This document shows, piece after piece, positions 13,702 through 36,063 of a stretch of 64,000 nt of DNA. The position numbers and the translations under genes are program-made. Source of the stretch: Pirellulales bacterium (lineage in GTDB: Bacteria; Planctomycetota; Planctomycetia; Pirellulales; PALSA-1355); contig CAVTBU010000005.1 of the NCBI GenBank assembly GCA_963733035.1, positions 1,472,001 through 1,536,000 on the forward strand, given 5' to 3'. Position 1 is the stretch's first letter. Each line of letters opens with the position of its first letter. The notes under the pieces were generated by a model that was given only the letters and a program-made list of their open reading frames with translations, had not been told where the DNA came from and did no database searches.

Positions 13702-14334
13702 ATGATCACGACCGCCGCTGTTTGCGATGTTGCAACGCACGGCCGAAACGATTCGCTTGACGACTGGCTCGCACTGGCCCGCCAGGGATCGGTATCGGCG
13801 CTGGGACATGTCTTGAACTCACAACGCGGCCCTTTGTTGACCTTGGCACGCCGCGGTCTCGATGCTCGGCTGCAAGCAAAAGTCGGCGCCGAGGACCTTG
13901 TGCAGGAAACGTTCGTTCAGGCCCAGAAGGACTTCGAGCAATTTCGCGGTGGTAGCTATCATGAATTCAGCAGTTGGCTGCGCTCGATCCTTGCCAATCG
14001 CCTGGCCAACAGCGTTCGCCACTATCGACACACGAAACAGCGCACGATCGATCGCGAATTGTCGCACACGGCCGCGGCCTCGCGATTGCGGGTTGTGTGT
14101 GACGATGTATCCGGCCCAAATGCAACGCTGATCCAACGCGATGAACAACAACGAATGCGATTGGCTCTGTCGCGACTCTCTCTGGAACAGAGAACGGTCC
14201 TTCTTGAACACACATGCCAAGGGCTTTCGTTTGCGAGGATTGCCGAGCGGCATCACAATTCGCCGAAACAGGCCCGACTTGCCTGGCATCGTGCGGTCCG
14301 GAAACTAGGACGACTACTGACCGGAATCGATTGA
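13702..14334 (+). CDS. ECF sigma-70 factor, planctomycete type (no adjacent kinase)
   Basis: Region 2 KVGAEDLVQETF...FSSWLRSIL; region 4 LSFARIAERH...WHRAVRKL; RBS GAGGAG before ATG 13702. Confidence 0.88.
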   Translation: MITTAAVCDVATHGRNDSLDDWLALARQGSVSALGHVLNSQRGPLLTLARRGLDARLQAKVGAEDLVQETFVQAQKDFEQFRGGSYHEFSSWLRSILANRLANSVRHYRHTKQRTIDRELSHTAAASRLRVVCDDVSGPNATLIQRDEQQRMRLALSRLSLEQRTVLLEHTCQGLSFARIAERHHNSPKQARLAWHRAVRKLGRLLTGID

Positions 14335-14466
14335 ATCGCTCCTGATCCGATCGTGCGCTTTTGAGGCGCGGCAATTCCGGTCTATGATGGCGGATGCCGC
14401 GTTGCGGCACTCTCGAGAATCCGCCTGACGTCTCGCATCACATTTGCCCAGGTACCTCATCGTCCT

Positions 14467-16065
14467 ATGTCCACCCTCTGGAAAGCTTGCGAATTTGCCA
14501 ACAAGATCCATTGGCCACGCATCACCGCGCTGGGCTGCCTCTTCGCCGGTTCGTTTCTCGCCGAGGCATGTGCCGGCGAGGCAAAGCCGAACGTTGTGGT
14601 TATTCTGGCTGACGATCTCGGCTACGGTGATCCGGCTTGCTACGGAGGCCAGATTTCCACGCCCAACCTCGATGGATTGGCGGCGGCCGGAATGCGCTTT
14701 ACGGATGCTCACACAAGTTCCTCGGTCTGTTCTCCGACGCGCTATGGATTGCTGACCGGCCGATATAACTGGCGATCGAAACTCAAACACGGAGTCTTGG
14801 GTGGCCTGAGCCCCCGACTGATTGAGCCAGACCGGCTGACAATCGGCTCGCTCTTGCAAGCCCAGGGCTACACGACCGCCGCCGTCGGCAAATGGCACCT
14901 CGGCATGAATTGGGTCGTCAAGCCAGGCGCGTCGGTAACCGAACTTGGCATCGAGCCCCGAGAACAAGTGTTTAACGTCGAATACGGAGAGCCGATTGCC
15001 GCGGGACCGAACAGCGTCGGTTTTGACTACTACTATGGCATCAGCGCGTCGCTGGACATGGTGCCCTATACGTTTATCGAAAACAACCGAGTAGTTGCGC
15101 TGCCGACCGAGGATCGCAGCTTCCTGATGATGCACGGTCGCCCAAAGGGAGGCCGCACGCGGCAGGGTCCGGCAGCGCCAGGTTTCGACGCGGTCGACGT
15201 GCTCCCCGCGATCGCCAGCAAGACCTGCGAGTTCATCGAGAAGCATGCCGCGATGGCACGCCAGTACAAACCGTTCTTTATCTACGTGCCGCTGACAGCC
15301 CCGCACACGCCTATCCTGCCGTCACGCGACTGGCAGGGCAAAAGTGACATGACTCCGTACGCCGATTTCGTCATGCAGACCGACGCGGCCGTCGGACAAA
15401 TCTTGGCGGCACTCGAAGAACAACAACTGGACGAAAACACGCTGGTGATTGTCACGAGTGACAATGGATGTTCGCCCAGCGCGGACTTCGCACAGCTTGC
15501 CGAGCACGGGCATTACCCCAGCGGTCCCCTTCGAGGCCACAAAGCGGACATTTTCGAGGGCGGGCATCGCGTTCCGTTCATCGTACGCTGGCCGGGCAAA
15601 GTCGGCGCGGGGACTAAGAGCACGCAATTGATCTGCTTGACCGACGTATTGGCCACGGTGGCGGAAATCGTCGGCGCGCCGCTGTCTGACAATGCAGCCG
15701 AGGACAGTATCAGCTTTCTGCCGACCTTGCAGGGAAAAACCAGTGCGGGCCGCGACCACCTGGTCTCGCACTCCATCAATGGATCATTCGCGATTCGGAA
15801 AGGTCCGTGGAAGCTGCTGCTGTGCCCCGATTCGGGAGGGTGGAGCCAACCCCGGCCGGGCACGCCCGCGAGCAAGTCGTTGCCTTCCCGGCAGCTCTAT
15901 AACCTTGACGAAGATCTTGGAGAGCAAACGAACCTGATCGACCAGAACTCGGAAATGGAGCAACACCTCCACGCCCTGCTGCAGGATATGGTTGACCGCG
16001 GCCGGACGACTCCCGGTGGCAGGCAGCCGAACACCGGGCAGGTCGACATCGAGCCTTCGCGGTAG
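14467..16065 (+). CDS. Arylsulfatase (formylglycine-dependent sulfatase)
   Basis: PNVVVILADDLGYGD, CSPTRYGLLTGR, GKWHLG, TSDNG and EGGHRVPFIVRWP motifs. Confidence 0.95.
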   Translation: MSTLWKACEFANKIHWPRITALGCLFAGSFLAEACAGEAKPNVVVILADDLGYGDPACYGGQISTPNLDGLAAAGMRFTDAHTSSSVCSPTRYGLLTGRYNWRSKLKHGVLGGLSPRLIEPDRLTIGSLLQAQGYTTAAVGKWHLGMNWVVKPGASVTELGIEPREQVFNVEYGEPIAAGPNSVGFDYYYGISASLDMVPYTFIENNRVVALPTEDRSFLMMHGRPKGGRTRQGPAAPGFDAVDVLPAIASKTCEFIEKHAAMARQYKPFFIYVPLTAPHTPILPSRDWQGKSDMTPYADFVMQTDAAVGQILAALEEQQLDENTLVIVTSDNGCSPSADFAQLAEHGHYPSGPLRGHKADIFEGGHRVPFIVRWPGKVGAGTKSTQLICLTDVLATVAEIVGAPLSDNAAEDSISFLPTLQGKTSAGRDHLVSHSINGSFAIRKGPWKLLLCPDSGGWSQPRPGTPASKSLPSRQLYNLDEDLGEQTNLIDQNSEMEQHLHALLQDMVDRGRTTPGGRQPNTGQVDIEPSR

Positions 16066-16245
16066 CAGACCGTTGAAAAGAGACCTCGCGGCCGGGCGGT
16101 AGTATAATCAGCCCCATGGTCTGCTGGGCGAAGTTTCGTAAGCTCGGCTTTGTAATCTCAGCGGGGCCACTTGTTGACACTGCGATTCGCAATCGCTCCA
16201 CCGCCGTCATCTAGTTCATCATCACACTCAACCCCGAACAACTCC

Positions 16246-17544
16246 ATGCTTCCACAACGACTCCTGACGCTCGTCATCATAACCTGCTCGCTTTGTTCGT
16301 TGGCACAGGCCGAACTGAAGGTCGGCGTTGGCAAGGCGATCATCACGCCCGATCCGCTGCTGCCTGTCTCCGGCGGCGTCGGCCCCGGCAATCCGTCCAC
16401 CGGCAAGCAGGGCGAGCTGACCGCTCGCGCCATGGTCTTCCAACAGGGTGAAACCACAGTCGCTTTCGTGCAACTCGACCTCCTTGGCTTCCCCTCGGTA
16501 CTTTGCGAACGCGTTCACAAACAGGTCCCTCGCATTCCGGCCGACAACATTCTTATTGGCTCGACGCACACGCATAGTGCTCCAGACTGCTACGGCTTTC
16601 CTGGCCCCAACGGTAGAGCCTCGGGCAATCTGAAGTACATGGACTTTGTCTGCAATCAGGCGGCGATTGCCATCAACCAGGCGTTCGACAACCTTCAGAC
16701 CGCCCAACTCAAGATGGCCACCGGCGAAGCCAAGGGAAAGATCGCCTACAACTATTACGCTCCGGAGCTTTACGATCCGCGGATGAGCGTCATTCAGGCC
16801 GTCTCCCCAGCCGGCGAAACGATCTGCACTTTGGTCAACTATGCCATCCATCCGGAAGTTCTCGGCAGCGGAGTCGGCCTTGTCAGCCCCGACCTTGTCG
16901 GCCCGCTGTGCGACAAACTCGAGACCGATCTTGGCGGCATGGGAATGTTCATGAACGGCGCACAAGGAGGCATGATCACGGCCGACAACCGTCGGCTTGA
17001 AAACCCCTCCGACCCGATCCACGCGAAGTGGCACGACTCCCGCACCTGGGAAGAGTGCCTGCGGATTGGTCAACTGATGGCCTCCGAAGCGGAGCGTATT
17101 GTCAAAGACGCCAAACCGCAAACCGACCCCGGCCTTGCCTGCTTTGCCCGGGAGGTCAAGTTCCCGGTTGCTTCCGACCTGATGTGGACCATCATCTTGG
17201 CCTCGCCGTTGAAGTATCCGCACAATAGCGACAAGTCGATCACCACGCGTATGAACCTGGTGAATCTCGGCAACGCCCAGATCCTCACCATCCCGGGCGA
17301 AGCCCTCCCCAACATCGGCTACTACATCAAGCGACACATGAAAGGGGAAAACAATCTACTGTTCGGCCTCACCAACGACGCCTTTGGCTACATCCTCACC
17401 AAGGTCGATTTCAATAGCTTCAAGCGCTACGAATACGTCTCACGTACCTCACTCGGCGAAATGACGGGCGAAATCCTCATTGAGAACGCGCTCGAATTGA
17501 TCGAAGAGTCGCCCGCGCCGGAAGCAATCGACGGCAAGAATTGA
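16246..17544 (+). CDS. Secreted neutral/alkaline ceramidase-like protein
   Basis: Signal peptide; VGVGKAIITP, STHTHSAP, NYAIHP, NGAQGG, IPGE and GLTNDAFGYI motifs. Confidence 0.75.
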   Translation: MLPQRLLTLVIITCSLCSLAQAELKVGVGKAIITPDPLLPVSGGVGPGNPSTGKQGELTARAMVFQQGETTVAFVQLDLLGFPSVLCERVHKQVPRIPADNILIGSTHTHSAPDCYGFPGPNGRASGNLKYMDFVCNQAAIAINQAFDNLQTAQLKMATGEAKGKIAYNYYAPELYDPRMSVIQAVSPAGETICTLVNYAIHPEVLGSGVGLVSPDLVGPLCDKLETDLGGMGMFMNGAQGGMITADNRRLENPSDPIHAKWHDSRTWEECLRIGQLMASEAERIVKDAKPQTDPGLACFAREVKFPVASDLMWTIILASPLKYPHNSDKSITTRMNLVNLGNAQILTIPGEALPNIGYYIKRHMKGENNLLFGLTNDAFGYILTKVDFNSFKRYEYVSRTSLGEMTGEILIENALELIEESPAPEAIDGKN

Positions 17545-17611
17545 CGGGCGGCATTTCAGGCTGATTGACATTACTTACTACGGCAGCGAATCATCGCCGC
17601 CATACGAAAAT

Positions 17612-17639
17612 CGGCCGCTGTCCGGTGGAGACAGCGGCC
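17612..17639. terminator. Hairpin between convergent genes, also downstream of the degenerate tRNA relic
   Basis: GGCCGCTGTC / GACAGCGGCC 10-bp perfect stem with an A-run on the left. Confidence 0.6.
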
Positions 17640-17647
17640 ATCAGAAA

Positions 17648-17674
17648 AGCGGGCCAAGCAATTCGAACGTTCGA
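17648..17674 (-). pseudogene. Degenerate tRNA-Gly 3'-end fragment (old att scar)
   Basis: AGCGGGCCAAGCAATTCGAACGTTCGA matches 19197-19223 at 22/27 positions and sits beside a homologous hairpin. Confidence 0.65.
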
Positions 17675-17763
17675 TCGGACCAAGGAGTCGATTGGTTCGC
17701 GGCGCAGGGATGGTTAACTCTGCGATGCGCGGGGTGCGTCAGCCGGCGAAACACGGTTGACGC

Positions 17764-18852
17764 TCAGCATCCCCTTCTTCGTCCGATCAGGACCAGTGCG
17801 ACGAGCCCCAGGCCCGCGATCATCAGCGATGAAGGTTCCGGAATCGCCATGCAGGCATTGTTGATCCAAGCGATGTCGGCCGCGGTGAGCAAGTTTGCGC
17901 CGCTTGCGATGTTATCCGAGAACAGTTGCGGGTTGTTGTTATTTCCAAAAGTGTGCACGGCGAAAATCGTGTCGCTAAACGCACTGATCGTCTGCGTTCC
18001 TACTGGATCTCCGTACACGTCGGTCAACCCGTCGACCGTGAAGTTCACCGCATCGGACGTGAAATATGGCCCGCCGGAATCACCACCGAAACTTGACCCG
18101 ACACCTAAATCCGGGTTGCCGGGACTGACGGGGCCGGGGTTCCATTTCACATCGGTATAGGTGTAACCATCATGTGCCGCCCCGGCGTTAACGCTCACGG
18201 GATTCGCATTGTCGAAGCGTTGGATGCCGACTGACAATTGAGGCGTAAACCCGTCCTGGATGCCCGAATCGTAATGCGGCACGCCGGTGAGACCGTATCC
18301 CACTTCCGTGAAGGTTCCTGGTAAGTTGCCGAGAGTGAGACTAGCCGGGGGAGTCCAGAGTTGAAGGTCTTGGACGCTGACGAAAAACGGATCGACCACG
18401 CCATAGCGGATGAAAGCCACCGCGAGATCCTCATTTCCTGTCGAACCGCCGCGCACGGTGTTCACGATGGGATAGGTGGCCGCAAAGCTATTGGCCGGGT
18501 TCGTGCCGTCGCCAAAATAGCCAAAGCCGATGCTATTGGCGCCTGCCGCGACGACATGGTCGGCCGTGAGTACGCAGAAGTAACCGATTTGTTGGGCCCC
18601 TTCAGTGATATAGTGTGACCCAATAATCGAACCAGTTCCGACGTCGACGGTCGGACTTTTGGTCATGTCGACCACCGAATAGAAGTTGCTAAAAGCCGTG
18701 GGATTTGTCGTTTGCTGGACCGGCGCGGTTGCCCAGGCCGAATGACACACCATGAACAAAGCGCTGCATGCCAAGATGACTGGGATGGGCAATCGCCCGA
18801 TTCGAGATCGGGACTGTCGAGCGTGGTCGCGGAACGTCGCTTTGCCATTCAT
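17764..18852 (-). CDS. PEP-CTERM protein with trypsin-like (S1) serine protease domain
   Basis: Catalytic-triad motifs VLTADHV, EDLAV and GDSGGP; C-terminal IPEPSS + TM + RRR. Confidence 0.85.
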   Translation of the reverse strand: MNGKATFRDHARQSRSRIGRLPIPVILACSALFMVCHSAWATAPVQQTTNPTAFSNFYSVVDMTKSPTVDVGTGSIIGSHYITEGAQQIGYFCVLTADHVVAAGANSIGFGYFGDGTNPANSFAATYPIVNTVRGGSTGNEDLAVAFIRYGVVDPFFVSVQDLQLWTPPASLTLGNLPGTFTEVGYGLTGVPHYDSGIQDGFTPQLSVGIQRFDNANPVSVNAGAAHDGYTYTDVKWNPGPVSPGNPDLGVGSSFGGDSGGPYFTSDAVNFTVDGLTDVYGDPVGTQTISAFSDTIFAVHTFGNNNNPQLFSDNIASGANLLTAADIAWINNACMAIPEPSSLMIAGLGLVALVLIGRRRGC

Positions 18853-18959
18853 CAGCGATCTCCTTGGTTAGACGGTCGCCGAAGTGGACATGGGGCAGAC
18901 AGTGGATCGCCGTGTCGACATTCAAGGCAGACCGCGGACTAGAAAACCCACGATTGCAC

Positions 18960-18987
18960 ACTGTAGCGTGCCGTGAGACATAGTCAA
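18960..18987 (-). promoter_or_regulatory. Putative sigma70 promoter of the PEP-CTERM protease gene
   Basis: Minus strand TTGACT-16 nt-TACAGT. Confidence 0.55.
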
Positions 18988-19158
18988 CAAAAAGCTGCGA
19001 GAAGTCAGTTTTCAACAACGGATTCTCGCCTTGCACCGTTCCGACCTGCCTCGGGCTTGAACGTTGCGGAGACGCACAAAACCGACAGATCGCCGGCACT
19101 TGGCACACTGAGGAGAACACGATGTCGAAGCAAGCCGCCGCGCCTGATCCCAATGCAT

Positions 19159-19189
19159 ACGGCCGCTGTCCACGCCAGACAACGGCCGT
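19159..19189 (-). terminator. Hairpin immediately downstream of the tRNA-Gly fragment
   Basis: Minus strand ACGGCCGTTGTC-7 nt-GACAGCGGCCGT with one G-U pair. Confidence 0.55.
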
Positions 19190-19196
19190 CACAAAG

Positions 19197-19241
19197 AGCG
19201 GGCGAAGGGATTCGAACCCTCGACATCCAGCTTGGGAAGCT
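19197..19241 (-). tRNA. 3' half of tRNA-Gly(CCC) (att site, not an intact gene)
   Basis: Minus strand AGCTTCCCAAGCTGGATGTCGAGGGTTCGAATCCCTTCGCCCGCT contains the anticodon arm with CCC, the T arm and the acceptor 3' strand. No D arm or 5' acceptor strand is present upstream. Confidence 0.9.
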
Positions 19242-19297
19242 ACCCGCTCCAATCCCTAAGTGCCAACTCCGGCCAACTTACGTCGACCGATTCTTCG

Positions 19298-20009: not shown

Positions 20010-20055
20010 CGGTCGTTCAAGATAACCGAGTTTCTTTCGTCAAAGGAGTTTTCAA

Positions 20056-20323: not shown

Positions 20324-20352
20324 ATACTTCACCTTAAAAACGAGAGGTCAGC

Positions 20353-23696: not shown

Positions 23697-24404
23697 TTAC
23701 TTCAGGTTCGCACGCAATCGCTGCATTGCGCGGGTCCATAGCTTGCGTGCGGCGTCACCACTGCGATCCATCGCTGCGCCGACTTCTGCAAACGACAGTC
23801 CCTCCAAATTCCTAAGTACAACGGCTTGACGATAACTCTCGGGGAGCCGTCGCAGCGCCCATTGAAGCAGGGCACTATCCTCGGCATCAACGCACCATTG
23901 GCAAGGCGATTTGCACGCAGCAGCACTTGTCGGTTCGAGATCCTTGCCGACAAGGGCATTCAAACTGAGCTCGCGGCAGATGGCACGCTTTGGGGTCAAA
24001 TAACGGCGGCGGGTATCACGCACGCGATTTAAAAGAATTGCTCGCAGCCAGCCAAGTAGCTCTTTTTCCGTGGACCCTTGAAAGCAACTGAATTCTGCCT
24101 GCGCGGCAAGCAAGGTATCTTGGACGACATCCTCCGGGTCCAGTTTTGCGCGGAATCGCTCTGGCAGTAGGCGGTCTGCCACGTGCAGCAGATAACGCTG
24201 GCTGCACTGGAGAAGATAACCCTGAGCTTCCGTACAACCATCGGAGGCCAACCGAATACAGGCATCCTTCTGAATCGAGAGGCTCGGCTCCCCTCCAAAA
24301 ACCGCATTTGGTACTTTTTCGGCGACCGTAATCATGGTAGTGCTGGGGGCAAAAGTCGAAAATGCATCTTCAGGCAGTGTGTAATTCTTACGGCTATTCT
24401 TCAA
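23697..24404 (-). CDS. ECF sigma-70 factor, planctomycete type (no adjacent kinase); start uncertain
   Basis: KLDPEDVVQDT, LLGWLRAILLN and LSFAEVG...AARKLWTRAMQRL motifs. Confidence 0.9.
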   Translation of the reverse strand: MKNSRKNYTLPEDAFSTFAPSTTMITVAEKVPNAVFGGEPSLSIQKDACIRLASDGCTEAQGYLLQCSQRYLLHVADRLLPERFRAKLDPEDVVQDTLLAAQAEFSCFQGSTEKELLGWLRAILLNRVRDTRRRYLTPKRAICRELSLNALVGKDLEPTSAAACKSPCQWCVDAEDSALLQWALRRLPESYRQAVVLRNLEGLSFAEVGAAMDRSGDAARKLWTRAMQRLRANLK

Positions 24405-24543: not shown

Positions 24544-25299
24544 TTATGTCGCGTGCTTTCTTCGTCGGATCACCAGCAGGGCGACGATCCCGAAAGCGGC
24601 CAACGCTACGCTCGCCGGTTCGGGCACGAGATAGCCCGTCCCAGCCACATTGCCCGTGCCCGCGGCATGAAATCCGGTGAGGAACCCGCCAGCTGATGTA
24701 ACGCCCGTCAAGTTCGCACTCGACATGACGATCGTGATCGGCTGGGATTGGTCAAATTCCAAGTTGAACGGCAGGCTTTGCGCGAACAGATCGGTTGCGA
24801 ATCCCGACACGGAGATGGCGATTTGGCTGCCGGTGTAGAAGAACTGCATCGTGTCGATGTTTAACGCCGCTCCCCAACCGGGAATCGTGTTATTGGTCAG
24901 CAGATCGACGCCGAAGGCGCCGCCGTTGCCCCCGCTATAAACGATGCTGCCGCCGGACGCTGGAATGTTGAGCACGTCTTTGATGTAGATGTCCGCAAAG
25001 ACGTTCGTGTTTTGAACTCCGACGAGAGTGCCGTCGAGGTAGAAGTTCATCGAACCTAGCGGATCGGACTGGGCGGGATCACCAATGCCAACGGTGTTGT
25101 GCGTCCCGGCGTCGAAAATATTTGTTCCGTCGTAATCGAGATTGAGTCCGGTGAACTGAATTTCAAGCGTGCCGGCTTTGGCGACGGAAACCGACAGAAG
25201 CACCGCGACGAGCATCGCGAATGCCGAGAAGCGCCGTGCGATACGGCGAGTGGCTCGCAGCAGGGCAAGCTGCGAAGAGGAACCAATCAGCAGACGCAT
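24544..25299 (-). CDS. PEP-CTERM surface protein
   Basis: RBS GAGGAG before ATG 25299; long leader ending VAKA; C-terminal VPEPAS + TM + RRRK. Confidence 0.9.
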   Translation of the reverse strand: MRLLIGSSSQLALLRATRRIARRFSAFAMLVAVLLSVSVAKAGTLEIQFTGLNLDYDGTNIFDAGTHNTVGIGDPAQSDPLGSMNFYLDGTLVGVQNTNVFADIYIKDVLNIPASGGSIVYSGGNGGAFGVDLLTNNTIPGWGAALNIDTMQFFYTGSQIAISVSGFATDLFAQSLPFNLEFDQSQPITIVMSSANLTGVTSAGGFLTGFHAAGTGNVAGTGYLVPEPASVALAAFGIVALLVIRRRKHAT

Positions 25300-25363
25300 G
25301 AAGCTACTCCTCGGTGTCGGCACGGTGCGCGTCGGAAAACCGGACTGCGATGACGCTCGCTTG

Positions 25364-25391
25364 AGACTAGTCACCACCCAGCGAAAGTCAA
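25364..25391 (-). promoter_or_regulatory. Putative sigma70 promoter of PEP-CTERM gene 24544-25299
   Basis: Minus strand TTGACT-16 nt-TAGTCT. Confidence 0.55.
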
Positions 25392-25859
25392 CGAAATCCA
25401 GCCGAAGTTTCGCGAGATTTAACGCAGCCTAAATAAATAGCTGTTTTCGCTTTACGTCAAGGACAGGACGTGTCAGGGTACCGGCGCTGCAGCACGAATC
25501 TGGCGCACCATCACGAACCACTCCTGCGCGGTTCCCACACCGAATAAGTCGCCTGTGGAAACAGGTCAGGCATGTTCTTCGCCGCTGATCAAGGCGCCTC
25601 GCGGCGGTCGGGGTGACCGATTTTTGTCGATCAGTTTCAGCGGCGAGATAGTCCCAGTTTAGGTTCCACCAGACCAAGCAAGGGCCATCCAGGGCTTTGC
25701 AAAGCAGTTGCCCGCAAGATTTCTTGTTACCTGAAAGCCGTTTAGTCAGTATGCCGCCATTGGCGGCCTATAGGGAGTTAGAAGGGGTGTTTCGGGAGTA
25801 CGGCTTATCCGCACACTATCCGCTCTTTGATGATGCGCCACATCCTCAGGTACGTAAAT

Positions 25860-26609
25860 ATGAAATCGAAGATTCTGTTGCTGGCTGCAAGTTGTGTGGC
25901 ATGGGCGTGCTTCGGTCCTGCTGCTCATGCGGCAATTTCGATTGTATCTGCCGTAGGGGGGCAACCGATCAGCGGGGCGAACTACGTGACGTTCAATGAC
26001 CTTTCTGCAGGCGGCACCGGCGGCTTCGCTGCCAATACGACAGCCTCGGGCGGCATTACGGTATCTTTTACTCCCGACGCAAAAGTGGTCAGCGGCGCGG
26101 CATCTGGTTTGTATGCCCCTCCTTTTCTCTCGAACAACAATGGCTTGAACTTCGGTGGTCAGGGCAATGGCGCGGACGCAACCAATTATTTAACGAGCGG
26201 TAGCGATGGTGGCAGTTACCCGGCTGCCAAAGCTGTTCTGACGTTCTCCAGCAAGCAGCAGTATTTCGGGCTGTTGTGGGGATCGGTCGATAAATACAAC
26301 ACCTTGCAGTTCTTTGATAATGCGACGTTAGTCGGAACAATCGACGGTAGCCAGGTCGATGCCAATGCGACCGGCGACCAAGGTACATCGGGAACCTTTT
26401 ATGTGAATATCAGCTCGACGCTGGGTTTCGATAAGGTTGTGGCCACGAGTTCCCAGTACGCATTTGAGTTTGATAATGTGGCCTATTCTCAATACTCGGT
26501 CGATCCTCAGGGTGTGCTCTCCGTTCCCGAGCCGGCCAGCATTATCGTCTGGTCGCTGCTCGCCTTAATGTTAGGTGGCGCCAACTGGTGGCGACGACGA
26601 AGTGGCTAG
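25860..26609 (+). CDS. PEP-CTERM protein, Npun_F0296-like family
   Basis: Signal peptide; YFGLLWGSVDKYNTLQF and AFEFDNVA motifs; VPEPASIIVWSLL...WWRRR. Confidence 0.88.
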   Translation: MKSKILLLAASCVAWACFGPAAHAAISIVSAVGGQPISGANYVTFNDLSAGGTGGFAANTTASGGITVSFTPDAKVVSGAASGLYAPPFLSNNNGLNFGGQGNGADATNYLTSGSDGGSYPAAKAVLTFSSKQQYFGLLWGSVDKYNTLQFFDNATLVGTIDGSQVDANATGDQGTSGTFYVNISSTLGFDKVVATSSQYAFEFDNVAYSQYSVDPQGVLSVPEPASIIVWSLLALMLGGANWWRRRSG

Positions 26610-27266: not shown

Positions 27267-30200
27267 TCACCTTAGTTCGTCCGCCGGAATCTCAACCAGC
27301 TCCCCTGCAGTGGAACTGACCATGACGCAGTCGAAGTTCTGCGCGAACGTTGGAAAACCGCTTAGGTGACCTTCCTGTCGAGCGCGGTTGTGAACGTTTC
27401 GAAACAACTGCTCCAGGCTTTCCGGTTGGTCGAGATCCTCGAAGTTCCAACTTATTTGCGGCATGTCGGGGACTTTAAGCAGCAATGCTTGATAGGCGAG
27501 TCCCGCCGATCCTCCATCCGCGACACGCGCTCCAAAGATGGCCCCGCCATACCCCCTCACACGAGCCCATCGGCATATCCGACCGGCGACGTCTGCAAAC
27601 AGGTGTTGTTCAAGGTCGTAGTCCGATCTGGGAGTGCCGATCGGGGATGCAAGTAAAGTGCTTGGGATTTCCACGAGCTTGGCGGAGGCCGCTTTGAACA
27701 CGACCGCCTGATAGTGCCGCTGACTATCCCGCTGAACTCGTACGAACGTCGGGTAACCACCAGCGTATCCGTGCACGGTCGCCCAATCATTGACGGCTCG
27801 AATCAATTGGCACGTCGTGGGCGATCCCTGTCTGTTTCGGCTTGAAGCGTCGGAGAGCTGGTCTTGTTGGCGTGCGTGGTCGGGAAGAAGCGGAACGGTT
27901 ATCGCCCCGTTGCGCACCGTCAAGGCGGACGCGGTGGCAACCAACTGATCAACTTGCGGATCGATCGCCGCATCGCAATTCTCGTCTCGATAAATGGCGA
28001 TCTCGTTTACGCGAGCGTTGACCTCCGCGGCCGACAAAGGACGCCCCTCCAAGTCTTCAAAGCGGAGGGTAACGCTATCGACTAGACGATCTCCGTGTCG
28101 GCGGCCGGCCGTGAACGACCGCATGATCGGCAGCACGGAGCTAGACCGCCACAGTTGCTGCCAACCGGTTTTTGTCTTTTGTTCGAGTTCCACGTCGAAC
28201 CGAAGCCCTTCGTTGGCGCGCCAGATCACGGCGTTCTTGTCGCGTGCGGCAATGATCGCATCCGGTCGCCCGTCGCCATTGACGTCAAATGCTTCAACGC
28301 ACTCGCATCCAGGTGCGTGCCCATCCACTGGGTGCACGGTTTGATTGAATCGTCCTCGGCCGTCGTTTACAAAACACGTCACTCGGTCGCCCTCGTGGTC
28401 GCAAAGCAACACGTCCAGATCACCGTCCACGTCAAGGTCAACGACATCGACATCGGTTGCCCTGACAAGCTTGGTCGCCACGGTATTCGCCAGCGTGAAG
28501 GAGCCCTTGCCGTCGTTGGCAAACCAGACTGCGCTTTCGTCACCCGCATACAGCACATCGGGATCGGTGTCGCCATCCAAATCGGCCGCGACGACTGCCA
28601 TCACGCGACTCGCGTGTGTCGTTACAACGCGCGGTACGGAAAAGCGACCATGCCCTTGGTTGGCGTACCAGGCCACGGTATCGTCGCCGGACGACCCGGA
28701 GAGAATGTCGATATCGCCGTCGGCATCGAGATCCGCCGTTGTCAAGCAAATGTCCCCACCAGTGAACCGGCCGATTGATTGTGGATCGCCGAGTCGGCCG
28801 GCGCCCAGATTCTCAAGCACGACTATCGAAGCGTTCGCCACTGCCCCACATACCAAATCAAGGTCGCCGTCGCCGTCCAGATCGGCCGCGGCCATTCCGT
28901 CCACGTCCCGTAGTTTTGAAAGCGTCCGTCGCTCCTGCGGCGCTCCACTGCTGTCAAACGTTAGCCACCAAGCTTGGCTGTCGGCCGAACAAACAACACC
29001 CGGCAATCCGGACCCGTTAAGGTCCGCCGCGAGGATATTTGAGCATCTGTCCACAGTCGCGGCCCGGTCATGAAATTCCGTACCACTGCCGTCGTTGGTC
29101 AGCATATGTAGCCGGCCCTCGCTACGACTCATCGCCGCGACATCTAGATCGCCATCACCGTCAAAGTCAGCGACCGCCAGCCGTCGCGGTTCCCGAGTTC
29201 CTGAGGCGATCGTGCGGCTTGCTCCAAATGCCGGAATCGGGTGTAGGATTGCCGAGGATGGTAACGGCGACGAGACAACCGAACCTGTTGGCCCATCCTG
29301 GTCGAATGCAGAAATCGGGGCAGGTGGGACGCAGCGAACGCGGATAGGATCGCAGGTGCCAATTGCGTCAGCGGCCATTTCAAACTTGATCAAAAGGTCG
29401 GACTGGCGCTGCAGCGGAATTCTTTCTTCAGCCGCCAGAAGAGGTGCCCACGCGGTATCGGCGATGTCTTTCAGCACGGTCGAGCGCGAGGCGTCACGCG
29501 GCAGGGACCACCGCCAGATTCGTCCCATGCCTTGCGAATCCTGGCCAAGGGCCAGGAGTTGGTCGTCATTGCCGGTAAAAGTGAAGTCGATGATCTCGCA
29601 GCAATCCTCGCATTCGAGTTGCAACAGCGGTTGGCCATTTTGAACGTCAAAAAGCGTGATCAGTACAGAATTCGATTGAGAAAACTGTGGGGCAGTAGCC
29701 AGGATCCGTCCGCGCGACGAAAACTTTAGCGTATAAAGTTCGGTCTGCTGCGGAACAAGCGACCGTACAACCTTCCCTGTCGCGACGTCCCAAAGAGTCG
29801 TTTCGCCTAACTTGCAACAAGCAATTGACTTTCCGTCAGATGAAAACGTCGCGTCGAAAGCATCACCCAGCGAGTGCTTTAATTCTCCCGTGCGAACGTC
29901 GTGCAACCGCACCTGATCCGTTCGAATTGCCAGCCGTTGTCCGTCCGGAGAAAAGGTCATGCGCAAAGGGGCACTTCCGACTTTCACCAGCCTCGTCACT
30001 CTTCCCACTTGCCGGTCGATAATTGCGACGTGTCCCTCGTCGATGCGGAGTGCCACGTGCTGGCTGTCGCTCGACCAAACAAGTTCACCCTGGCATGCCC
30101 ACGGGTTTGCTTGCCGAAGCAGCACTTTGCCCGTCGCGTAATTCCAGATGGCCAACTCTTGCTTGCTCGCAACGGCCGCGTGCATGCCGTCGGGGGCCAA

Positions 30201-32804
30201 ACCAACCTCTTCAACTGAATCGATCGGCGCCCGTACGATGCCGATCAGGCGACCGGCTGTCAGGTCCCAGGTACGCACGAAACCATCTTTTGAAAACGTC
30301 GTCGCAGAGTTGCCCTGGGAATTGACCGTCATGGCGCGAAACAAGGCCGCCACTCCAAGAGGTAATTGCGAGCCGGCCGGTCGTCTTGCAGAATCCCAGA
30401 GTCTTACGACACGATCGGCCCCGGCGGTAGCCAGCGTGCGCCCGTCCGGCGACCAGGCGACCGACCACACTCTCCCAATATGTCCCAAAAGCCTCTCTGG
30501 GGGGCCCTGTCGGCCAAGTGACCAGAGCTTGACGATGCCAGCCTTGTCGCAAGACACCAGTCGGTTATCGAAGGGAGAAAACGCGAGGCATTGAATCTTC
30601 TCAAGATGATCGTGACGGAACCTGTGCTTGCCAGACAAACCTTTGACATCCCAGTCCCTAACTTCAATCCAGTCGCTCTTTCCTGCATAGGCGAGCCAGG
30701 GAAAGTCATGCGAAAAGGCTACAGCCAGCACATGGAAACCCGGACTCTTTGCTCCGGGCAGTTCCTGCCAATCGCTCACGCGCCAGCAGTGCACGGCGCC
30801 GGCGTCATCGCCCGATACGAGCAACGACCCATCGGGCGAGAAACTTACGGCTTGCACGAAGTCGGCAGGGCTCTCCAGCACCCGCTCCGGCAACCGCCGT
30901 GCGACATTCCAGACGCGAACGGTCGAATCCCAGCTTCCGCTGGCCAATAGCTTGCCATCGGGCGAGAAGGCTATCGCAGGTATGCCAGCACTGTGACCTT
31001 CAAGAACCCCGACCTGCGCGCCGGTGTCCGTATTCCAGAGACGAATCGTGCAATCTTCACTGGAACTGGCTAGCAGCCGGCCATCGGGCGAAAAGGCGAC
31101 TCGCATGACCTCGTCGGTGTGCCCTCGCAGCACGTGCAAGGCATTTCCCGAAACGGCATTCCAGATTCGGGCGGTGCCATCCTTGCTGGCCGTGGCCAAC
31201 CGTCGACCATCGGCCGAATATACGACGCAAAACACCTCGTCGTCGTGACCCTCAAGCGACAGCGCCTCCTGATGGCTTAATCCTTGGAGATAGTGCCAGG
31301 CAAAGCTGCGGAGATCCTCTTGTCCATTCTTGGGTATGTGCCGCTGGAGGTACTCGAGCATCTGCGGTACGTTGTCCGCCTGGTAAGCGCCTTGGGCCAA
31401 CCCCACGTCGGCTGCATACAGTAAACGTCGGCTTGCTTCGGCCTCACGTTGGGCGACCTCGCGTGCCCGATCAGCGCGCGTAACCTCACTGCTGAGCCGT
31501 GCGCTGTAGGCAACGACAACTCCGAACAGCGTGGCGGCGGCGACCACGACAACGGTCCATAGCGCCGCGATCGCTGGGCGGCGACGAGCCCATTTCCATG
31601 CGCGCTCCGCTGCAACCAGCGGTCGTGCCTCGGTGACCTGGCCGGCTAAGAACCGCCCCAAATCGTCTGACAAATCCTGCGCGGTGACATAGCGCGCGTC
31701 GCGCTCTTTTGCCAAACATTTCAGGCAAATCGCCTCCAAATCGCGAGGAATGTCGTGACGGATGCGACGTGGTGCCACAGGATCATCAAACAACACATGT
31801 CGCAGTGCTTCGATGTCAGACGCGCTCTCAAAAACACGCCTACCGGTGAGAATCTCGTACAACATCGCCCCCAAGGCATACACGTCGGCGCGGGCATCGA
31901 CGTCGCGGACTCGGCCTTGTGCCTGTTCAGGCGCCATGTATGCCGGCGTGCCGACGAGCGCGCCGCTGCGAGTTTCGTCTCCCTCTCGCTCCAACAACTT
32001 GGCCATGCCGAAGTCCGTCAGCTTGGGAAATGCCGCGTCCCCGTCAACGCTTCCCGCAATGGGCTTGTTTTCATCGGTCGTTGTCGCGAGCTGCGTCGGC
32101 TGCGATTCCGCCTGCGGCCTGGTCAGCATCACGTTGCTGGGTTTGATGTCGCGATGGAGGACGCCGCGTCCGTGGGCATGCTGCACGGCTTCGGCAAGTT
32201 GTTTGACCACGCGCGCCGCCGTATCGATTGGCACCGGCTCCTTCCGCGACTTGAGCCACTCCGCCAGCGTCGGTCCTGGACAGAATTCAGCGGCGATGTA
32301 GCAAATCGAAGCCTCTTCGCCAGCTTCGTAAACGCTGACAAGATGCGGGTGGCTCAGTCTTGCCGCGGCTTCCGCCTCGCGGAGAAAACGGCGGCGCAAA
32401 TCGTCACTCACGAGCGACTCAAGGCGAGGAACTTTCAGGGCCACCTGGCGGTGCAGTTTCGGGTCGTAGGCCAGGTACACGACGCCCAGTCCGCCGTGCC
32501 CCAATTCACTTTGAATATGAAACCGCCCCAGCGTCGTGCCTGCTTTGCCGGTCGGCGTGGCGACGGCCGCGTGAGTCGGTCGGGGCGTATCCGTAGTCGC
32601 CAGATCGGGCGACCAGCCGCGCCGTACGCGATGTAGAAGCTCGAGGCAATGCCGGTCGGCTTCCCACTTGGCCAGTATTTCCTCGTCCTCGGCGATCGAG
32701 GATGCATCGACATACCCGGAAGCGGTGCCGGCGGCAAGCTGTTCGTCGATTTGGACCAGGAGCTCCGTCAGCAGGTCTTCGCGATCTCGATCGTCGACAA
32801 CCAT
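27267..32804 (-). CDS. Hanks-type Ser/Thr kinase with TM segment, WD40 repeats, FG-GAP/VCBS repeats and an unassigned C-terminal region
   Basis: GHGGLG, VALK, HRDIKPSN, DFG and YMAPE motifs; hydrophobic helix IAALWTVVVVAAATLFGVVVAY; GH...WD/WN repeats; DLDGDGDLD repeats. Confidence 0.95.
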   Translation of the reverse strand: MVVDDRDREDLLTELLVQIDEQLAAGTASGYVDASSIAEDEEILAKWEADRHCLELLHRVRRGWSPDLATTDTPRPTHAAVATPTGKAGTTLGRFHIQSELGHGGLGVVYLAYDPKLHRQVALKVPRLESLVSDDLRRRFLREAEAAARLSHPHLVSVYEAGEEASICYIAAEFCPGPTLAEWLKSRKEPVPIDTAARVVKQLAEAVQHAHGRGVLHRDIKPSNVMLTRPQAESQPTQLATTTDENKPIAGSVDGDAAFPKLTDFGMAKLLEREGDETRSGALVGTPAYMAPEQAQGRVRDVDARADVYALGAMLYEILTGRRVFESASDIEALRHVLFDDPVAPRRIRHDIPRDLEAICLKCLAKERDARYVTAQDLSDDLGRFLAGQVTEARPLVAAERAWKWARRRPAIAALWTVVVVAAATLFGVVVAYSARLSSEVTRADRAREVAQREAEASRRLLYAADVGLAQGAYQADNVPQMLEYLQRHIPKNGQEDLRSFAWHYLQGLSHQEALSLEGHDDEVFCVVYSADGRRLATASKDGTARIWNAVSGNALHVLRGHTDEVMRVAFSPDGRLLASSSEDCTIRLWNTDTGAQVGVLEGHSAGIPAIAFSPDGKLLASGSWDSTVRVWNVARRLPERVLESPADFVQAVSFSPDGSLLVSGDDAGAVHCWRVSDWQELPGAKSPGFHVLAVAFSHDFPWLAYAGKSDWIEVRDWDVKGLSGKHRFRHDHLEKIQCLAFSPFDNRLVSCDKAGIVKLWSLGRQGPPERLLGHIGRVWSVAWSPDGRTLATAGADRVVRLWDSARRPAGSQLPLGVAALFRAMTVNSQGNSATTFSKDGFVRTWDLTAGRLIGIVRAPIDSVEEVGLAPDGMHAAVASKQELAIWNYATGKVLLRQANPWACQGELVWSSDSQHVALRIDEGHVAIIDRQVGRVTRLVKVGSAPLRMTFSPDGQRLAIRTDQVRLHDVRTGELKHSLGDAFDATFSSDGKSIACCKLGETTLWDVATGKVVRSLVPQQTELYTLKFSSRGRILATAPQFSQSNSVLITLFDVQNGQPLLQLECEDCCEIIDFTFTGNDDQLLALGQDSQGMGRIWRWSLPRDASRSTVLKDIADTAWAPLLAAEERIPLQRQSDLLIKFEMAADAIGTCDPIRVRCVPPAPISAFDQDGPTGSVVSSPLPSSAILHPIPAFGASRTIASGTREPRRLAVADFDGDGDLDVAAMSRSEGRLHMLTNDGSGTEFHDRAATVDRCSNILAADLNGSGLPGVVCSADSQAWWLTFDSSGAPQERRTLSKLRDVDGMAAADLDGDGDLDLVCGAVANASIVVLENLGAGRLGDPQSIGRFTGGDICLTTADLDADGDIDILSGSSGDDTVAWYANQGHGRFSVPRVVTTHASRVMAVVAADLDGDTDPDVLYAGDESAVWFANDGKGSFTLANTVATKLVRATDVDVVDLDVDGDLDVLLCDHEGDRVTCFVNDGRGRFNQTVHPVDGHAPGCECVEAFDVNGDGRPDAIIAARDKNAVIWRANEGLRFDVELEQKTKTGWQQLWRSSSVLPIMRSFTAGRRHGDRLVDSVTLRFEDLEGRPLSAAEVNARVNEIAIYRDENCDAAIDPQVDQLVATASALTVRNGAITVPLLPDHARQQDQLSDASSRNRQGSPTTCQLIRAVNDWATVHGYAGGYPTFVRVQRDSQRHYQAVVFKAASAKLVEIPSTLLASPIGTPRSDYDLEQHLFADVAGRICRWARVRGYGGAIFGARVADGGSAGLAYQALLLKVPDMPQISWNFEDLDQPESLEQLFRNVHNRARQEGHLSGFPTFAQNFDCVMVSSTAGELVEIPADELR

Positions 32805-32813
32805 ATCGTGGAG

Positions 32814-33449
32814 TCACTCGATGTCAGTCAACAATTCTTGCAACTTGCGGACCGCACGGGCCCACGTCTTACGAGCGGCATCGGCGGAACAATTTCGGCG
32901 CGCGCCGATTTCGGCGAATGCCGCACCTTGCCACGTGCGTTCCATCAGCACCGATCGCCATGGTTCTTCCAGCCTTTCGAGCACCGCGCGGACGCGCCTT
33001 TGCTCGTCTCGCGCAAGGAACGACGTGCCCGGCGTTAACGCGTCATCTTTCAGTCTTTCAAGCGCTCCCTCAAGCAGCGCCAAGGGTTGTTCGCGGCCAA
33101 CGTCACGTCGTTTAACCTGACTATATCGCCGGACGCTATTGGCTACTCGATGCCGCAGAATACCGACCAGCCAAGCGTAGAATTCCTGCGGAGTGTTGCC
33201 GCGAAATGCCTCAAAACCACGATGCGCTTCGACGAACGTATCCTGCACCAAGTCCGAAGCGCCCACCTTTGAACGTAACTTGTCATCCAACGCCCGATTG
33301 GCGACTAGCAGCAAGTACTTGCGGTTTTCCTCCAGCGCCCGTCCCAGGGCGGACTTCGATCCGTCCCGTGCTTCCCGTACCAATCTTTCAATCGCTTGCT
33401 CGGCGGAGGGCACTCCGTCCTGTCGCGCAGGCGAAAACGGTGCATCCAT
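32814..33449 (-). CDS. ECF sigma-70 factor cotranscribed with the Ser/Thr kinase
   Basis: KVGASDLVQDT, FYAWLVGIL and FAEIG...AARKTWARAVRKL motifs; stop codon 9 nt before the kinase ATG. Confidence 0.93.
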   Translation of the reverse strand: MDAPFSPARQDGVPSAEQAIERLVREARDGSKSALGRALEENRKYLLLVANRALDDKLRSKVGASDLVQDTFVEAHRGFEAFRGNTPQEFYAWLVGILRHRVANSVRRYSQVKRRDVGREQPLALLEGALERLKDDALTPGTSFLARDEQRRVRAVLERLEEPWRSVLMERTWQGAAFAEIGARRNCSADAARKTWARAVRKLQELLTDIE

Positions 33450-33787
33450 TAGTCTGCGGCCTCTATATCGATAGGAACAAATCGAGTGAAAACCGGACGG
33501 GCCGAGAAGCTATAGCGGCGTGGAATTGTTCGGATGGCGGACGACTGAGCGTGGTTTGATCAGCCGACTGCCGACGCGGATAGGCACAAAAAACAGCGTG
33601 GGTGTACGATACCCCCACGGTTTGCCAACGTCAAGAATTTGTCAGGGTTCCCCTAGGATTCCAGCCAACTGTGGAACTTCGGCCGAAGCAGTCGCCGTGC
33701 CGATTCCTGTCAGCCGCCGAAGAGAGCACAAAAGTGAGACGTTCGTCGAGGATTGATGGCCACGCAGACTTCCTGGACGCATCGAAA

Positions 33788-33976
33788 TCAAGTCCGACCC
33801 CGTTCCAACTGGTCGGCACGCAATTCTCGCTCGAGCTCAAGCACATAAATTCGCGTTACGACACCGGCGTCATCGTGCCGGGAACGCAGTTTTGCCAGTT
33901 CGGATTCGACTGCTCGAAGCCGCTCGGCAATCTCCCGACGGAGTTCCGAGGATAGTCGCATGATGGGCGTTCGCAT
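33788..33976 (-). CDS. Possible small coiled-coil protein
   Basis: MRTPIMRLSSELRREIAERLRAVESELAKLR..., amphipathic pattern, weak RBS. Confidence 0.35.
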   Translation of the reverse strand: MRTPIMRLSSELRREIAERLRAVESELAKLRSRHDDAGVVTRIYVLELERELRADQLERGRT

Positions 33977-33988
33977 GAACATCAACCC

Positions 33989-34031
33989 AAAAACAACCCC
34001 GCAGCGCGGGGCAGTGCGTGCAACTGCGGGG
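33989..34031 (-). terminator. Putative terminator of PEP-CTERM gene 34170-34976
   Basis: Minus strand CCCCGCAG...CTGCGGGG followed by TTGTTTTT. Confidence 0.5.
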
Positions 34032-34169
34032 CGGCGAGCGAGTCGCTCACCATCCTCACATCGTCCAGTTGCCGTCTGGACTTTAAAAATGCGCGCACGA
34101 AATAAGCCGAAGCAGAACTGGATCTGCCCCGGCTCATGCAATCGTGTGGTTGACGACTCCTCGGCGGCG

Positions 34170-34976
34170 CTATGCCGAACGCCGACCTCGTCGCCACCAA
34201 CATGCGCCGCTTACTGTCACCCCCAGCAGCGACCAAACAAGCAAACTGGCCGGCTCAGGCACGGCTTCGAGATTGACGTTGGCAATGTCCCCATTGTTTA
34301 GAGTGATCGTAAGTCCATCGACGAGGCCCGTAAAACCAGTGGACCATCCGCTGCCGGTTTGCAGACTAAACAGATTTACGACTTCATTGCTGTAATCAAC
34401 GTTCTGACTGCCGCTCGGCCAGTTCACCGGACCCGCTTGCAAGTTCGCTAGCGTCGGGTCGGTGTAAGTTCCATAGATACCGCCGTCCCGATTGACGTCG
34501 TAGAAGCGAAGGGGATTTGTTGAATCGTTAGTTGACCATTGGTGCCAAGTACCCGGTGTCACAGCAGCCGTGCCAGTCAAGTAAGGTTCCGCATTCAGGC
34601 GCGAGTGGTACCAACTCGCCGAATCGCCCGTGCCGGTCGCCGCGGTGTATAGGTACAACGCCCAATCCGGGTCGGCCGCTGTGGTGCCTTTGTTCGTCCA
34701 ATAGCTAATCGACGCGATGTCGGCAATCGTCACCGCACTGCTAAAAAGTGAACTCGCTTGAATGTACAGTTCTCCTTTGGTGTCCGAGGACTGTTGCCAG
34801 GAGCTTCCCGAGAAGCCAGGTGCTGAGGTGCTGCCGTTGCCCGCCACGTTTGATGCACCTGAATAACTGGGATAGAGGGTCACGTTGGTAATCGCGGCCC
34901 TGGACTCCGATGGATTGGTTAGGACTGCCAACAAGACAGCTAAGCACAAAATCAGATGCGAAAAATGACGATTCAT
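34170..34976 (-). CDS. PEP-CTERM surface protein
   Basis: Signal peptide; C-terminal VPEPASLLVWSLL...WWRRGRR. Confidence 0.9.
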   Translation of the reverse strand: MNRHFSHLILCLAVLLAVLTNPSESRAAITNVTLYPSYSGASNVAGNGSTSAPGFSGSSWQQSSDTKGELYIQASSLFSSAVTIADIASISYWTNKGTTAADPDWALYLYTAATGTGDSASWYHSRLNAEPYLTGTAAVTPGTWHQWSTNDSTNPLRFYDVNRDGGIYGTYTDPTLANLQAGPVNWPSGSQNVDYSNEVVNLFSLQTGSGWSTGFTGLVDGLTITLNNGDIANVNLEAVPEPASLLVWSLLGVTVSGACWWRRGRRSA

Positions 34977-35331
34977 CCGGTCCCCCCCCAGTGGTCGAGT
35001 CTCATAAATGCCGCGATTGCGTCTGGCTTCACATCACCGGACGGACAAGTTCTGTCATGTCAACCGATGTCAACATGTAATAGTCCGGAAGTCCGCCATT
35101 CCTGACACAAACTCTAAAATATATATTTCTAGAATTGAAGGGATTCCGAAGTCAAAGACCGAACTTCGAGGGGGAGGCCAAAATATGGCCATTTGAGACA
35201 AATACTTCGCACTGACCGGCATGCCCGCTCGATCCGGGAGTTTCCATTCGGATCTCGAACTGCCGATTCGGCTACGCCGCCGGAGTTGCGGACGCAGCTA
35301 CTTCGATGCCGAGGCGACTCACTTCCCGGAG

Positions 35332-36063
35332 TCAGATGCGTACTTTGTTGGAGAGGGGGCTCGGCTCGCACAGTTTTTGACGCAATTTGGTCGCTCCGCG
35401 ACTACAAAGCTTTCGTGCCGCCTCACAGGAGCATTCCAGTTGATTCCCAATTTCTCGGAAAGAACGCTGCTCTTGGTGTCGCAAAAGGAACGCGTCCCGC
35501 ATCCGCACCGGCAGCTGACCAACACATTCGTCTAATCGAACGGTTTCTTCAACTAACAACACTTGCTGCGCGGGGTTCGCTTGCTTTGCCCACAACTCGG
35601 GCACTCCGTCCTCGCAGAGTTCCAGCGACAACTCGCGGGAGACATCGCGCTTCCTGGCCCGTTGATAGTACCGGTTGATGTCGGCGGCCTGGTGCAACAG
35701 GATCTGCCGCAACCAACCCAATAATTCGTCGCGCCGCTGACCACGGAAATCGGCAAAGCAACAGTGCGCCTGTAACGCTGTTTCCTGGACCAGATCCTCG
35801 GGATCGAGCTTCGTCCGCAAAGAATTCGCCATGACTCGGTTGGCAATCGATAGCAAATAGGCGGAACTACTTTCGATCAGCCTTCCTAATGCTTTCGTGG
35901 AACCTTGCCGGGCCTCGTCGATCCAGCGTGCAAACCGTTCTTCGCAACTTTCTTGCTTTAGTGCCTCAGCGTTCGGGTCGCTCGGGCGCTGTCCGAGTTC
36001 CACATTTGGTGCCTTGGCACGCGCCACGGCGGACGAGCGATGCCGTTTGACCTGCACGTACAT
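35332..36063 (-). CDS. ECF sigma-70 factor, planctomycete type (no adjacent kinase)
   Basis: KLDPEDLVQET, LLGWLRQIL and SFREIG...AARKLCSRG motifs. Confidence 0.9.
   Translation of the reverse strand: MYVQVKRHRSSAVARAKAPNVELGQRPSDPNAEALKQESCEERFARWIDEARQGSTKALGRLIESSSAYLLSIANRVMANSLRTKLDPEDLVQETALQAHCCFADFRGQRRDELLGWLRQILLHQAADINRYYQRARKRDVSRELSLELCEDGVPELWAKQANPAQQVLLVEETVRLDECVGQLPVRMRDAFLLRHQEQRSFREIGNQLECSCEAARKLCSRGATKLRQKLCEPSPLSNKVRI

Follow-up and report, generated by a model that had tools for sequence, protein, structure and literature searches.

A kinase-linked ECF sigma factor and three kinase-less paralogues with acidic region 2.2 motifs in a Pirellulales bacterium

The 64,000-nucleotide (nt) stretch of Pirellulales bacterium DNA analyzed here (assembly GCA_963733035.1, contig CAVTBU010000005.1, positions 1,472,001 to 1,536,000; "the window") contains four paralogous extracytoplasmic function (ECF) sigma factor genes within 22 kb, and no further sigma factors of this family are present in the window. 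These genes probably represent one standard sigma-kinase module and three lineage-specific, kinase-less paralogues with a gene-encoded acidic surface. In the module, the sigma factor P0003 has a serine at the third position of the DAED motif of region sigma-2.2, and the gene for a Hanks-type Ser/Thr kinase, P0005, is next in the operon. The three remaining sigma factors (the orphans P0001, P0002 and P0004) have glutamate in the same column. Lengths are given in amino acids (aa).

13702..14334, + strand: P0001, orphan ECF sigma factor, 210 aa from the ATG at 13702; KVGA-E-DLVQ, with GAG (Glu) at 13891-13893
23697..24404, - strand: P0002, orphan ECF sigma factor, 212 aa from the ATG at 24335; KLDP-E-DVVQ, with GAG (Glu) at 24132-24134
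27267..32804, - strand: P0005, Hanks-type Ser/Thr kinase, 1845 aa, beginning 9 nt past the P0003 stop codon
32814..33449, - strand: P0003, kinase-linked ECF sigma factor, 211 aa; KVGA-S65-DLVQ, with TCG (Ser) at 33255-33257
35332..36063, - strand: P0004, orphan ECF sigma factor, 243 aa; KLDP-E-DLVQ, with GAG (Glu) at 35797-35799

A first-pass annotation of this DNA had reported the serine motif beside the kinase and the glutamate motifs in the three orphans, and translations and a codon check confirm all four. The reading frame of P0001 is already open from a TTG at 13633. P0005 is the only open reading frame (ORF) in the window with a kinase domain. Its Pkinase domain spans residues 95-376 and contains HRDIKPSN and DFG motifs; the protein also has a single hydrophobic segment and then WD40 and FG-GAP repeats. 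The same annotation held that the orphans have neither a kinase nor an anti-sigma factor as a neighbor, and this is borne out: there is no kinase ORF directly downstream of any of the three Glu copies, and neither a zf-HC2 anti-sigma signature nor a membrane segment was found in the real ORFs that flank them. Small ORFs without any family match do adjoin the orphans. No RNA sequencing run was listed for the region, and small shares of it are present in four soil-metagenome DNA runs.

All four proteins match the Pfam domains Sigma70_r2 and r4/r4_2, which places them among the ECF (sigma-70 group 4) factors, and their TIGR02937 scores (56-69 bits) lie above the cut-off of 42.9. The top NCBIfam match for each is TIGR02984, Planctomycetaceae-specific ECF subfamily 1, at 135.9-156.5 bits; since all four fall below the curated threshold of 183.75 bits, they are relatives of that subfamily rather than curated members. 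Ser65 of P0003 aligns with the residue preceding the invariant aspartate of solved ECF sigma factors. As the first-pass annotation had proposed, this column is the DAED switch position, corresponding to the phosphorylated threonine of EcfP and to T51 of EcfK as these are described in PMC8999054 and PMC13147305.

The conservation of Ser65 suggests that it is a phosphorylation switch. If it works as in EcfP/PknT and EcfK/PknS, its phosphorylation would provide the negative charge with which the sigma factor docks on the beta-prime clamp helices of RNA polymerase. In P0001, a comparable charge may be provided by the position-3 glutamate (GAED), and in P0002 and P0004 by a position-1 aspartate together with the position-3 glutamate (DPED, a near match to the canonical DAED). 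Given such a gene-encoded surface, the orphans should bind core polymerase in unphosphorylated form and be constitutively active, with their activity set by the amount made.

Serine at the switch column and the adjacent kinase

A profile built from the four window proteins detects 15 family loci in the genome. All 10 Ser copies have a same-strand kinase ORF 0-18 bp downstream, a pairing that exceeds chance. A kinase is lacking beside the three Glu copies and a single DPAD copy, and is present beside a GVDD copy.

For a wider comparison, a profile of 14 copies from this genome gave 451 matches in 41 genomes, of which the best 150 were used, and the best 136 places outside the genome were taken with 5-kb flanks. 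The two related loci found with P0003 alone come from Fuerstiella and Planctomycetaceae records. Altogether 151 copies were tabulated, each scoring at least 150 bits or having a GASD motif in a split gene. Copies counted as assessable when 1.5 kb or more of sequence was available downstream, and as linked when a kinase domain began between -100 and 1500 nt downstream on the same strand. Counts by residue at the switch column are as follows.

Ser: 123 with kinase, 14 without, 2 not assessable
Glu: 0 with kinase, 3 without, 0 not assessable
Ala: 0 with kinase, 3 without, 1 not assessable
Asp: 2 with kinase, 0 without, 0 not assessable
Val: 1 with kinase, 1 without, 0 not assessable
Leu: 1 with kinase, 0 without, 0 not assessable

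Among assessable copies, 123/137 with serine are thus kinase-linked, compared with 0/6 with glutamate or alanine; glutamate occurs at this column in 0/136 of the best-matching relatives outside the genome. Two further pattern-based scans, seeded on a subfamily alignment with a pattern that leaves the switch column free, added three Ala or Val orphans (L150, L231 and L236), three Ser orphans (L012, L151 and L232), 16 pairs of a Ser sigma factor with a kinase, and four kinase-linked copies with Phe, Gly, Met or Lys. Among the pattern-scan matches listed, no canonical DAEDVVQ locus has an adjacent kinase. When the data are pooled, there are 139 Ser and 8 non-Ser copies with a kinase, and 17 Ser and 10 non-Ser orphans (Fisher p = 3e-5, with related copies that are not independent of one another). 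This distribution supports an enrichment of serine loss among kinase-less copies. The association between residue and kinase adjacency expected in the first-pass annotation holds, with the Ser orphans and the kinase-linked non-Ser copies as exceptions.

Acidic residues in the four-residue motif

A rule based on charge was scored in a 75-copy subclade that contains all four window genes. Motif position 1 is Gly, Ala or Ser in 66/66 of its Ser copies and Asp or Glu in 0/66, so each of these copies has a single acidic residue. The seven non-Ser orphans of the subclade have the motifs DPED (two), DPAD (three), DAVD (one) and GAED (one, P0001). Position 1 is aspartate in six of the seven, and P0001, the seventh, has its glutamate at position 3. 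At least two acidic residues are accordingly present in the four-residue motif in 7/7 non-Ser orphans vs 0/66 Ser copies.

"At least two acidic residues in non-Ser orphans" fits the data better than "Glu in orphans". The idea that glutamate mimics phosphoserine would then be refined to one in which the total acidic charge of the four-residue motif is what matters. The first-pass annotation had noted a phosphomimetic glutamate in all three orphans of the window; this is not the general orphan state, and orphans elsewhere mostly have alanine or valine.

Phylogeny and codons

In a tree of 150 rows, P0001 falls in a nine-row clade with eight GASD copies that have kinases (support 98), and P0004 groups with two DPAD orphans (95). 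A more careful tree was built from 38 rows with the motif columns taken out. Here P0001 is nested in a seven-row clade with six kinase-linked GASD copies, P0003 among them (100/99), and P0004 is sister to the DPAD orphan of its own genome (99/81). The P0004 clade has five Ser-less, kinase-less members from four genomes, all DPAD or DAVD apart from P0004 itself (95/84). The placement of P0002 is unsure: it pairs with a kinase-linked GLSD copy (91/89, not starred), and an approximately unbiased (AU) test does not reject a topology joining it to the orphan clade (p = 0.27).

From these positions it follows that serine was lost two or three times. The separate clades of P0001 and P0004 also agree with the earlier suggestion that GAED and DPED are of independent origin. 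By its placement, P0004 derives from an Ala lineage that was already kinase-less, and not straight from a Ser copy. Phylogenetically independent contrasts of Glu or Ala against Ser number three in all, two of them starred, and every one goes with kinase loss.

The serine codon is TCG in 6/8 copies of the GASD clade, and the orphans use GCG for alanine, GAG for glutamate and GTG for valine. Codon usage agrees with a path from TCG through GCG to GAG, since GCG is the only sense intermediate between the two. It may be that the orphans form a natural series in which a phospho-switch was replaced by permanent charge after kinase loss, either by way of Ser (TCG), Ala (GCG) and Glu (GAG) or by regaining a position-1 aspartate. 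Every Ser-less orphan would then have at least two acidic residues and be independent of a kinase, and the change would have taken place two or three times within 22 kb, each time beside genes for PEP-CTERM proteins that the orphan now controls. This fuller scenario is offered tentatively, and is somewhat more doubtful than not.

Comparison with known systems

The closest parallels are found in ECF43. Like EcfP/PknT of Vibrio parahaemolyticus, P0003 adjoins a Hanks-type kinase, has no anti-sigma factor, and carries a hydroxyl residue at DAED position 3. In EcfP, STTA replaces DAED and the second threonine is phosphorylated, which is described as restoring the charge needed for beta-prime binding (PMC8999054). 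P0003 differs in having serine rather than threonine and in keeping the position-4 aspartate (GASD), while STTA has no acidic residue; it also belongs to another taxon, and P0005 carries a very large WD40/FG-GAP sensor part. In the second ECF43 system, EcfK/PknS of Xanthomonas citri, T51 sits in a QATE motif, so that GASD resembles it in retaining one acidic residue beside the phosphosite, and an engineered T51E variant is reported to be constitutively active without the kinase (PMC13147305). The orphans of the window appear to have made naturally this laboratory change. ECF43 as a whole is described as having a QTTA-type sigma-2.2 motif with a conserved threonine and few remaining acidic residues, and 15.8% of its members keep a negative charge beside the phosphosite (PMC13147305). 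Co-occurrence with a kinase, as in ECF43, is seen for P0003 and for none of the three orphans, and the GASD motif of P0003, with its serine and its position-4 aspartate, is not of the QTTA type.

Within the Planctomycetota, groups ECF59-62 and ECF217 are described as planctomycetal, co-encoded with a Ser/Thr kinase and without an anti-sigma factor (PMC7826278). The phosphorylated residue is given as serine in ECF59 and in the original ECF60, in a review that credits Iyer et al. 2020 (PMC8103513). P0003 shares the origin, the adjacent kinase and the lack of an anti-sigma factor, and is likened to these groups by context and not by group models. A serine phosphosite in kinase-linked planctomycete ECF factors has thus already been predicted in print, and the new part would be the copies in which an acidic motif is restored in the absence of a kinase. 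The passages on ECF59-62 and ECF217 in PMC7826278 and PMC8103513 describe no members that lack a kinase and carry Glu, Ala or Asp substitutions, and those on EcfP in PMC8999054 mention no kinase-less paralogues with built-in charge.

The orphans also resemble canonical ECF factors such as Escherichia coli sigma-E and Pseudomonas aeruginosa AlgU, in that DPED is near DAED/DxxD and there is no kinase. Unlike canonical factors, which are normally held by an anti-sigma factor, they have none beside them, and in the 38-row tree they derive from within a kinase-linked family.

Tests of sigma factor activation by direct phosphorylation have been limited to a few proteobacterial proteins, and for the large planctomycete families such activation is still a prediction. 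The pairing of serine with a kinase, and the apparent restoration of acidic residues after kinase loss, provide evolutionary evidence that the serine is the functional switch in these families, and the Ser, Ala, Glu and position-1 Asp copies are natural variants ready for biochemistry.

PEP-CTERM genes and promoter motifs

Five genes in the region encode proteins with the PEP motif, hydrophobic helix and basic tail of PEP-CTERM proteins. A C-terminal motif scan identifies all five, and three also match PF07589.

12675..13349, - strand: PEP-CTERM protein gene, divergent from P0001 (Pfam PF07589, C-terminal motif scan)
17764..18852, - strand: PEP-CTERM protein gene, the fifth of the region (Pfam, C-terminal motif scan)
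24544..25377, - strand: PEP-CTERM protein gene, immediately 5' of P0002 on the same strand (Pfam, C-terminal motif scan)
25827..26609, + strand: secreted PEP-CTERM-like protein with a C-terminal VPEP, hydrophobic stretch and RRR (C-terminal motif scan, no Pfam match)
34170..34976, - strand: PEP-CTERM-like protein gene, between P0004 and P0003 (C-terminal motif scan, no Pfam match)

Five such genes in 22 kb compare with 0.34 expected from the 104 found genome-wide (Poisson 3e-5), and each orphan has one within 98-302 bp. The PEP-CTERM genes beside the orphans are likely targets, and PEP-CTERM protein genes provide a candidate regulon.

Two promoter-like elements lie upstream of P0003.

33472..33499, - strand: ECF-type promoter-like motif CGTCCGGT-N13-TGTTCCTA, ~25 nt 5' of the P0003 start codon
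33606..33634, - strand: sigma-70-like site TTGACG-17-TATCGT; the "AAATTTCTTGAC" box is also present in relatives

The proximal motif has a position weight matrix (PWM) score of 26.2 and is kept upstream of orthologous sigma-kinase operons in an upstream alignment of nine clade members. In the GASD clade, the sigma gene is preceded by a proximal motif, CGTCCGGT-N13-TCGTTCCTA, and by a distal TTGAC box. Sigma-70-like sites in the region are no more numerous than expected by chance; scans for sigma-70-type promoters yielded 0, 2 and 0 sites, at or under the shuffle means, and were rejected as evidence.

A promoter matrix was built from six GASD-clade sites and used in a genome-wide scan. Only three sites in the genome score above 20, namely those of P0003, of a paralogue at C5:56310, and at C5:49771. 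The last of these is the one strong match to the GASD-clade motif in the genome beyond the two sigma genes. It lies outside the window, scores 21.6, and is ~34 nt upstream of a PEP-CTERM ORF (C5:49805-51034). The half-sites CGTCCGGT and CGTTCCT, considered upstream of PEP-CTERM genes, occur in the window at chance frequency (5 vs 4.2 and 9 vs 9.0 expected) and were discarded.

Limits of the proposed model and alternative explanations

Several findings weigh against a module with charge-restored paralogues. All of the evidence for this model is comparative. In the pooled set, the 17 Ser copies without an adjacent kinase and the eight non-Ser copies that retain one (D, D, V, L, F, G, M, K) break the pairing in both directions, and HRD and DFG are intact in 8/9 kinases examined beside non-Ser sigma factors, so these kinases must act on other targets. 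A sign test on two or three contrasts cannot reach significance. Among the 10 pooled assessable non-Ser orphans, glutamate occurs only in the three of the window, and the other seven have Ala or Val. In 90 database homologues of P0002, the switch column is S in 64, A in 14, V in 5, G in 3, L in 2 and E in only one, with one gap. In a tight subfamily of 22 RLDPxDVVQ sequences it is A, V, G, L or E between invariant flanks, which indicates that charge at position 3 is not required in this background. Taken together, the mostly non-Glu column in homologues and its variation in the 22-member subfamily argue that glutamate is not generally selected in orphans. Solved structures point the same way: Ser65 aligns with Gln in one solved chain, which reads EAQD, and with the Pro of DVPD in E. 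coli sigma-E, so that the column is the correct one, yet an acidic residue there is not universal in canonical ECF factors. Finally, EcfK is reported to be phosphorylated at four further sites, with T106 in the linker needed for function, and its T51A variant is functional (PMC13147305); the linker phosphosites and the functional T51A variant are a warning against any single-site model.

The same EcfK observations are relevant to a model in which the orphans are still controlled post-translationally, whether by kinases acting in trans at other sites such as the sigma-2/sigma-4 linker, by an unrecognized anti-sigma factor, or by a neighboring one-component regulator. The genome has 43 kinase-domain ORFs, the kinases beside non-Ser sigma factors mostly keep their catalytic motifs, a WYL-WCX regulator is found beside sigma factors of the orphan clade, and the window has both a truncated paralogue of it (37036-37626) and family-less small ORFs near the orphans. 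However, the orphans have no zf-HC2 signature, membrane segment or adjacent kinase, and the gain of acidic residues would fit independence from a switch at the motif site; this model is considered unlikely. A two-tier cascade, proposed in the first-pass annotation, in which phosphorylated P0003 transcribes the three orphan genes as second-tier sigma factors, is very improbable. The four genes do lie within 22 kb, and the PEP-CTERM gene at 34170-34976 is preceded, at a distance of ~60 nt, by a CGTCCGGT half-site, but such half-sites are at chance frequency, the GASD-clade promoter matrix finds no site scoring above 14 near any orphan in the genome scan, and P0001 lacks the proximal promoter motif of its own clade. 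The Ser-clade motif is absent upstream of the orphans, and the suggestion of a cascade is therefore not upheld.

It might instead be that the Glu copies, all three of them redundant duplicates, are being lost by drift, with the Ser column released once there was no kinase and glutamate as one neutral outcome among several. If the orphans were inactive, the finding would shrink to ordinary duplicate decay. The three orphans have no orthologues in three congeneric genomes and no homologues above 50% identity among 5.8 billion proteins. Their end branches are long (0.64-1.15 vs a median of 0.34; 0.96-1.15 for P0001), P0001 keeps only 20/26 family-conserved positions, which is the 5th percentile (the median is 24), and its sigma-4 recognition helix carries changes; the lack of close homologues, the long branches and the helix changes also count against the favored model, and the freely varying column of the RLDPxDVVQ subfamily is what drift would predict. 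On the other side, all three ORFs are intact and full length, when only 0.7% of 1000 neutral-substitution simulations run to the observed 48% identity stay free of stop codons, and P0002 and P0004 each keep 23/26 conserved positions. Glutamate is found in 3/4 non-Ser orphans of the genome vs 1/90 database homologues, and acidic residues were gained at position 1 as well. The orphans look functional on these grounds, and loss by drift is rather improbable.

Variant family members and neighboring genes

Some kinase-linked family members depart from the GASD pattern. L011, in the genome of the window, and L108, in genome G007, are a divergent kinase-linked sigma pair with aspartate at the switch column (GVDD) and catalytically intact kinases, and so represent built-in charge alongside a kinase. 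L129 and L145 (genome G001) are kinase-linked sisters in which the switch column holds Leu or Val and a serine comes first in the motif (SPLD, SPVD); in these proteins, a shift of the phosphosite is possible. In L126 (G007:C42), the family sigma factor is part of a 605-aa open frame with an additional match to a kinase domain, and may be a sigma-kinase fusion or the result of a lost stop codon. At C5:2786430-2789586 in the genome of the window (G000, locus L009), a GASD sigma factor is spread over two ORFs that overlap out of frame, and the next gene, for the kinase, is likewise divided between two ORFs; the sigma-kinase pair may be disrupted, or this may reflect misassembly. The DPAD orphan L094 is flanked by a gene for a PP2C phosphatase and by another ECF sigma factor with a gene for a kinase-STAND NTPase (5660-6595 and 2-4398, both on the - strand).

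Upstream of P0004 is a short regulator-like gene.

37036..37626, + strand: HTH_11 protein, 196 aa, paralogous (38% identity over 105 aa) to the N-terminal region of the WYL-WCX regulator

This paralogue is truncated to the helix-turn-helix (HTH) part. The WYL-WCX HTH regulator itself adjoins Ser-less sigma factors of the orphan clade in two genera, between which it is 76% identical. Its loci are L002:4720-5967 (+) and L081:3380-4585 (+), and the L081 copy shares its strand with the sigma gene, which it overlaps. Elsewhere in the window, 37642-42678 (- strand) encodes a 1678-aa protein with four Laminin_G_3 domains along with cadherin-like and PKD domains.

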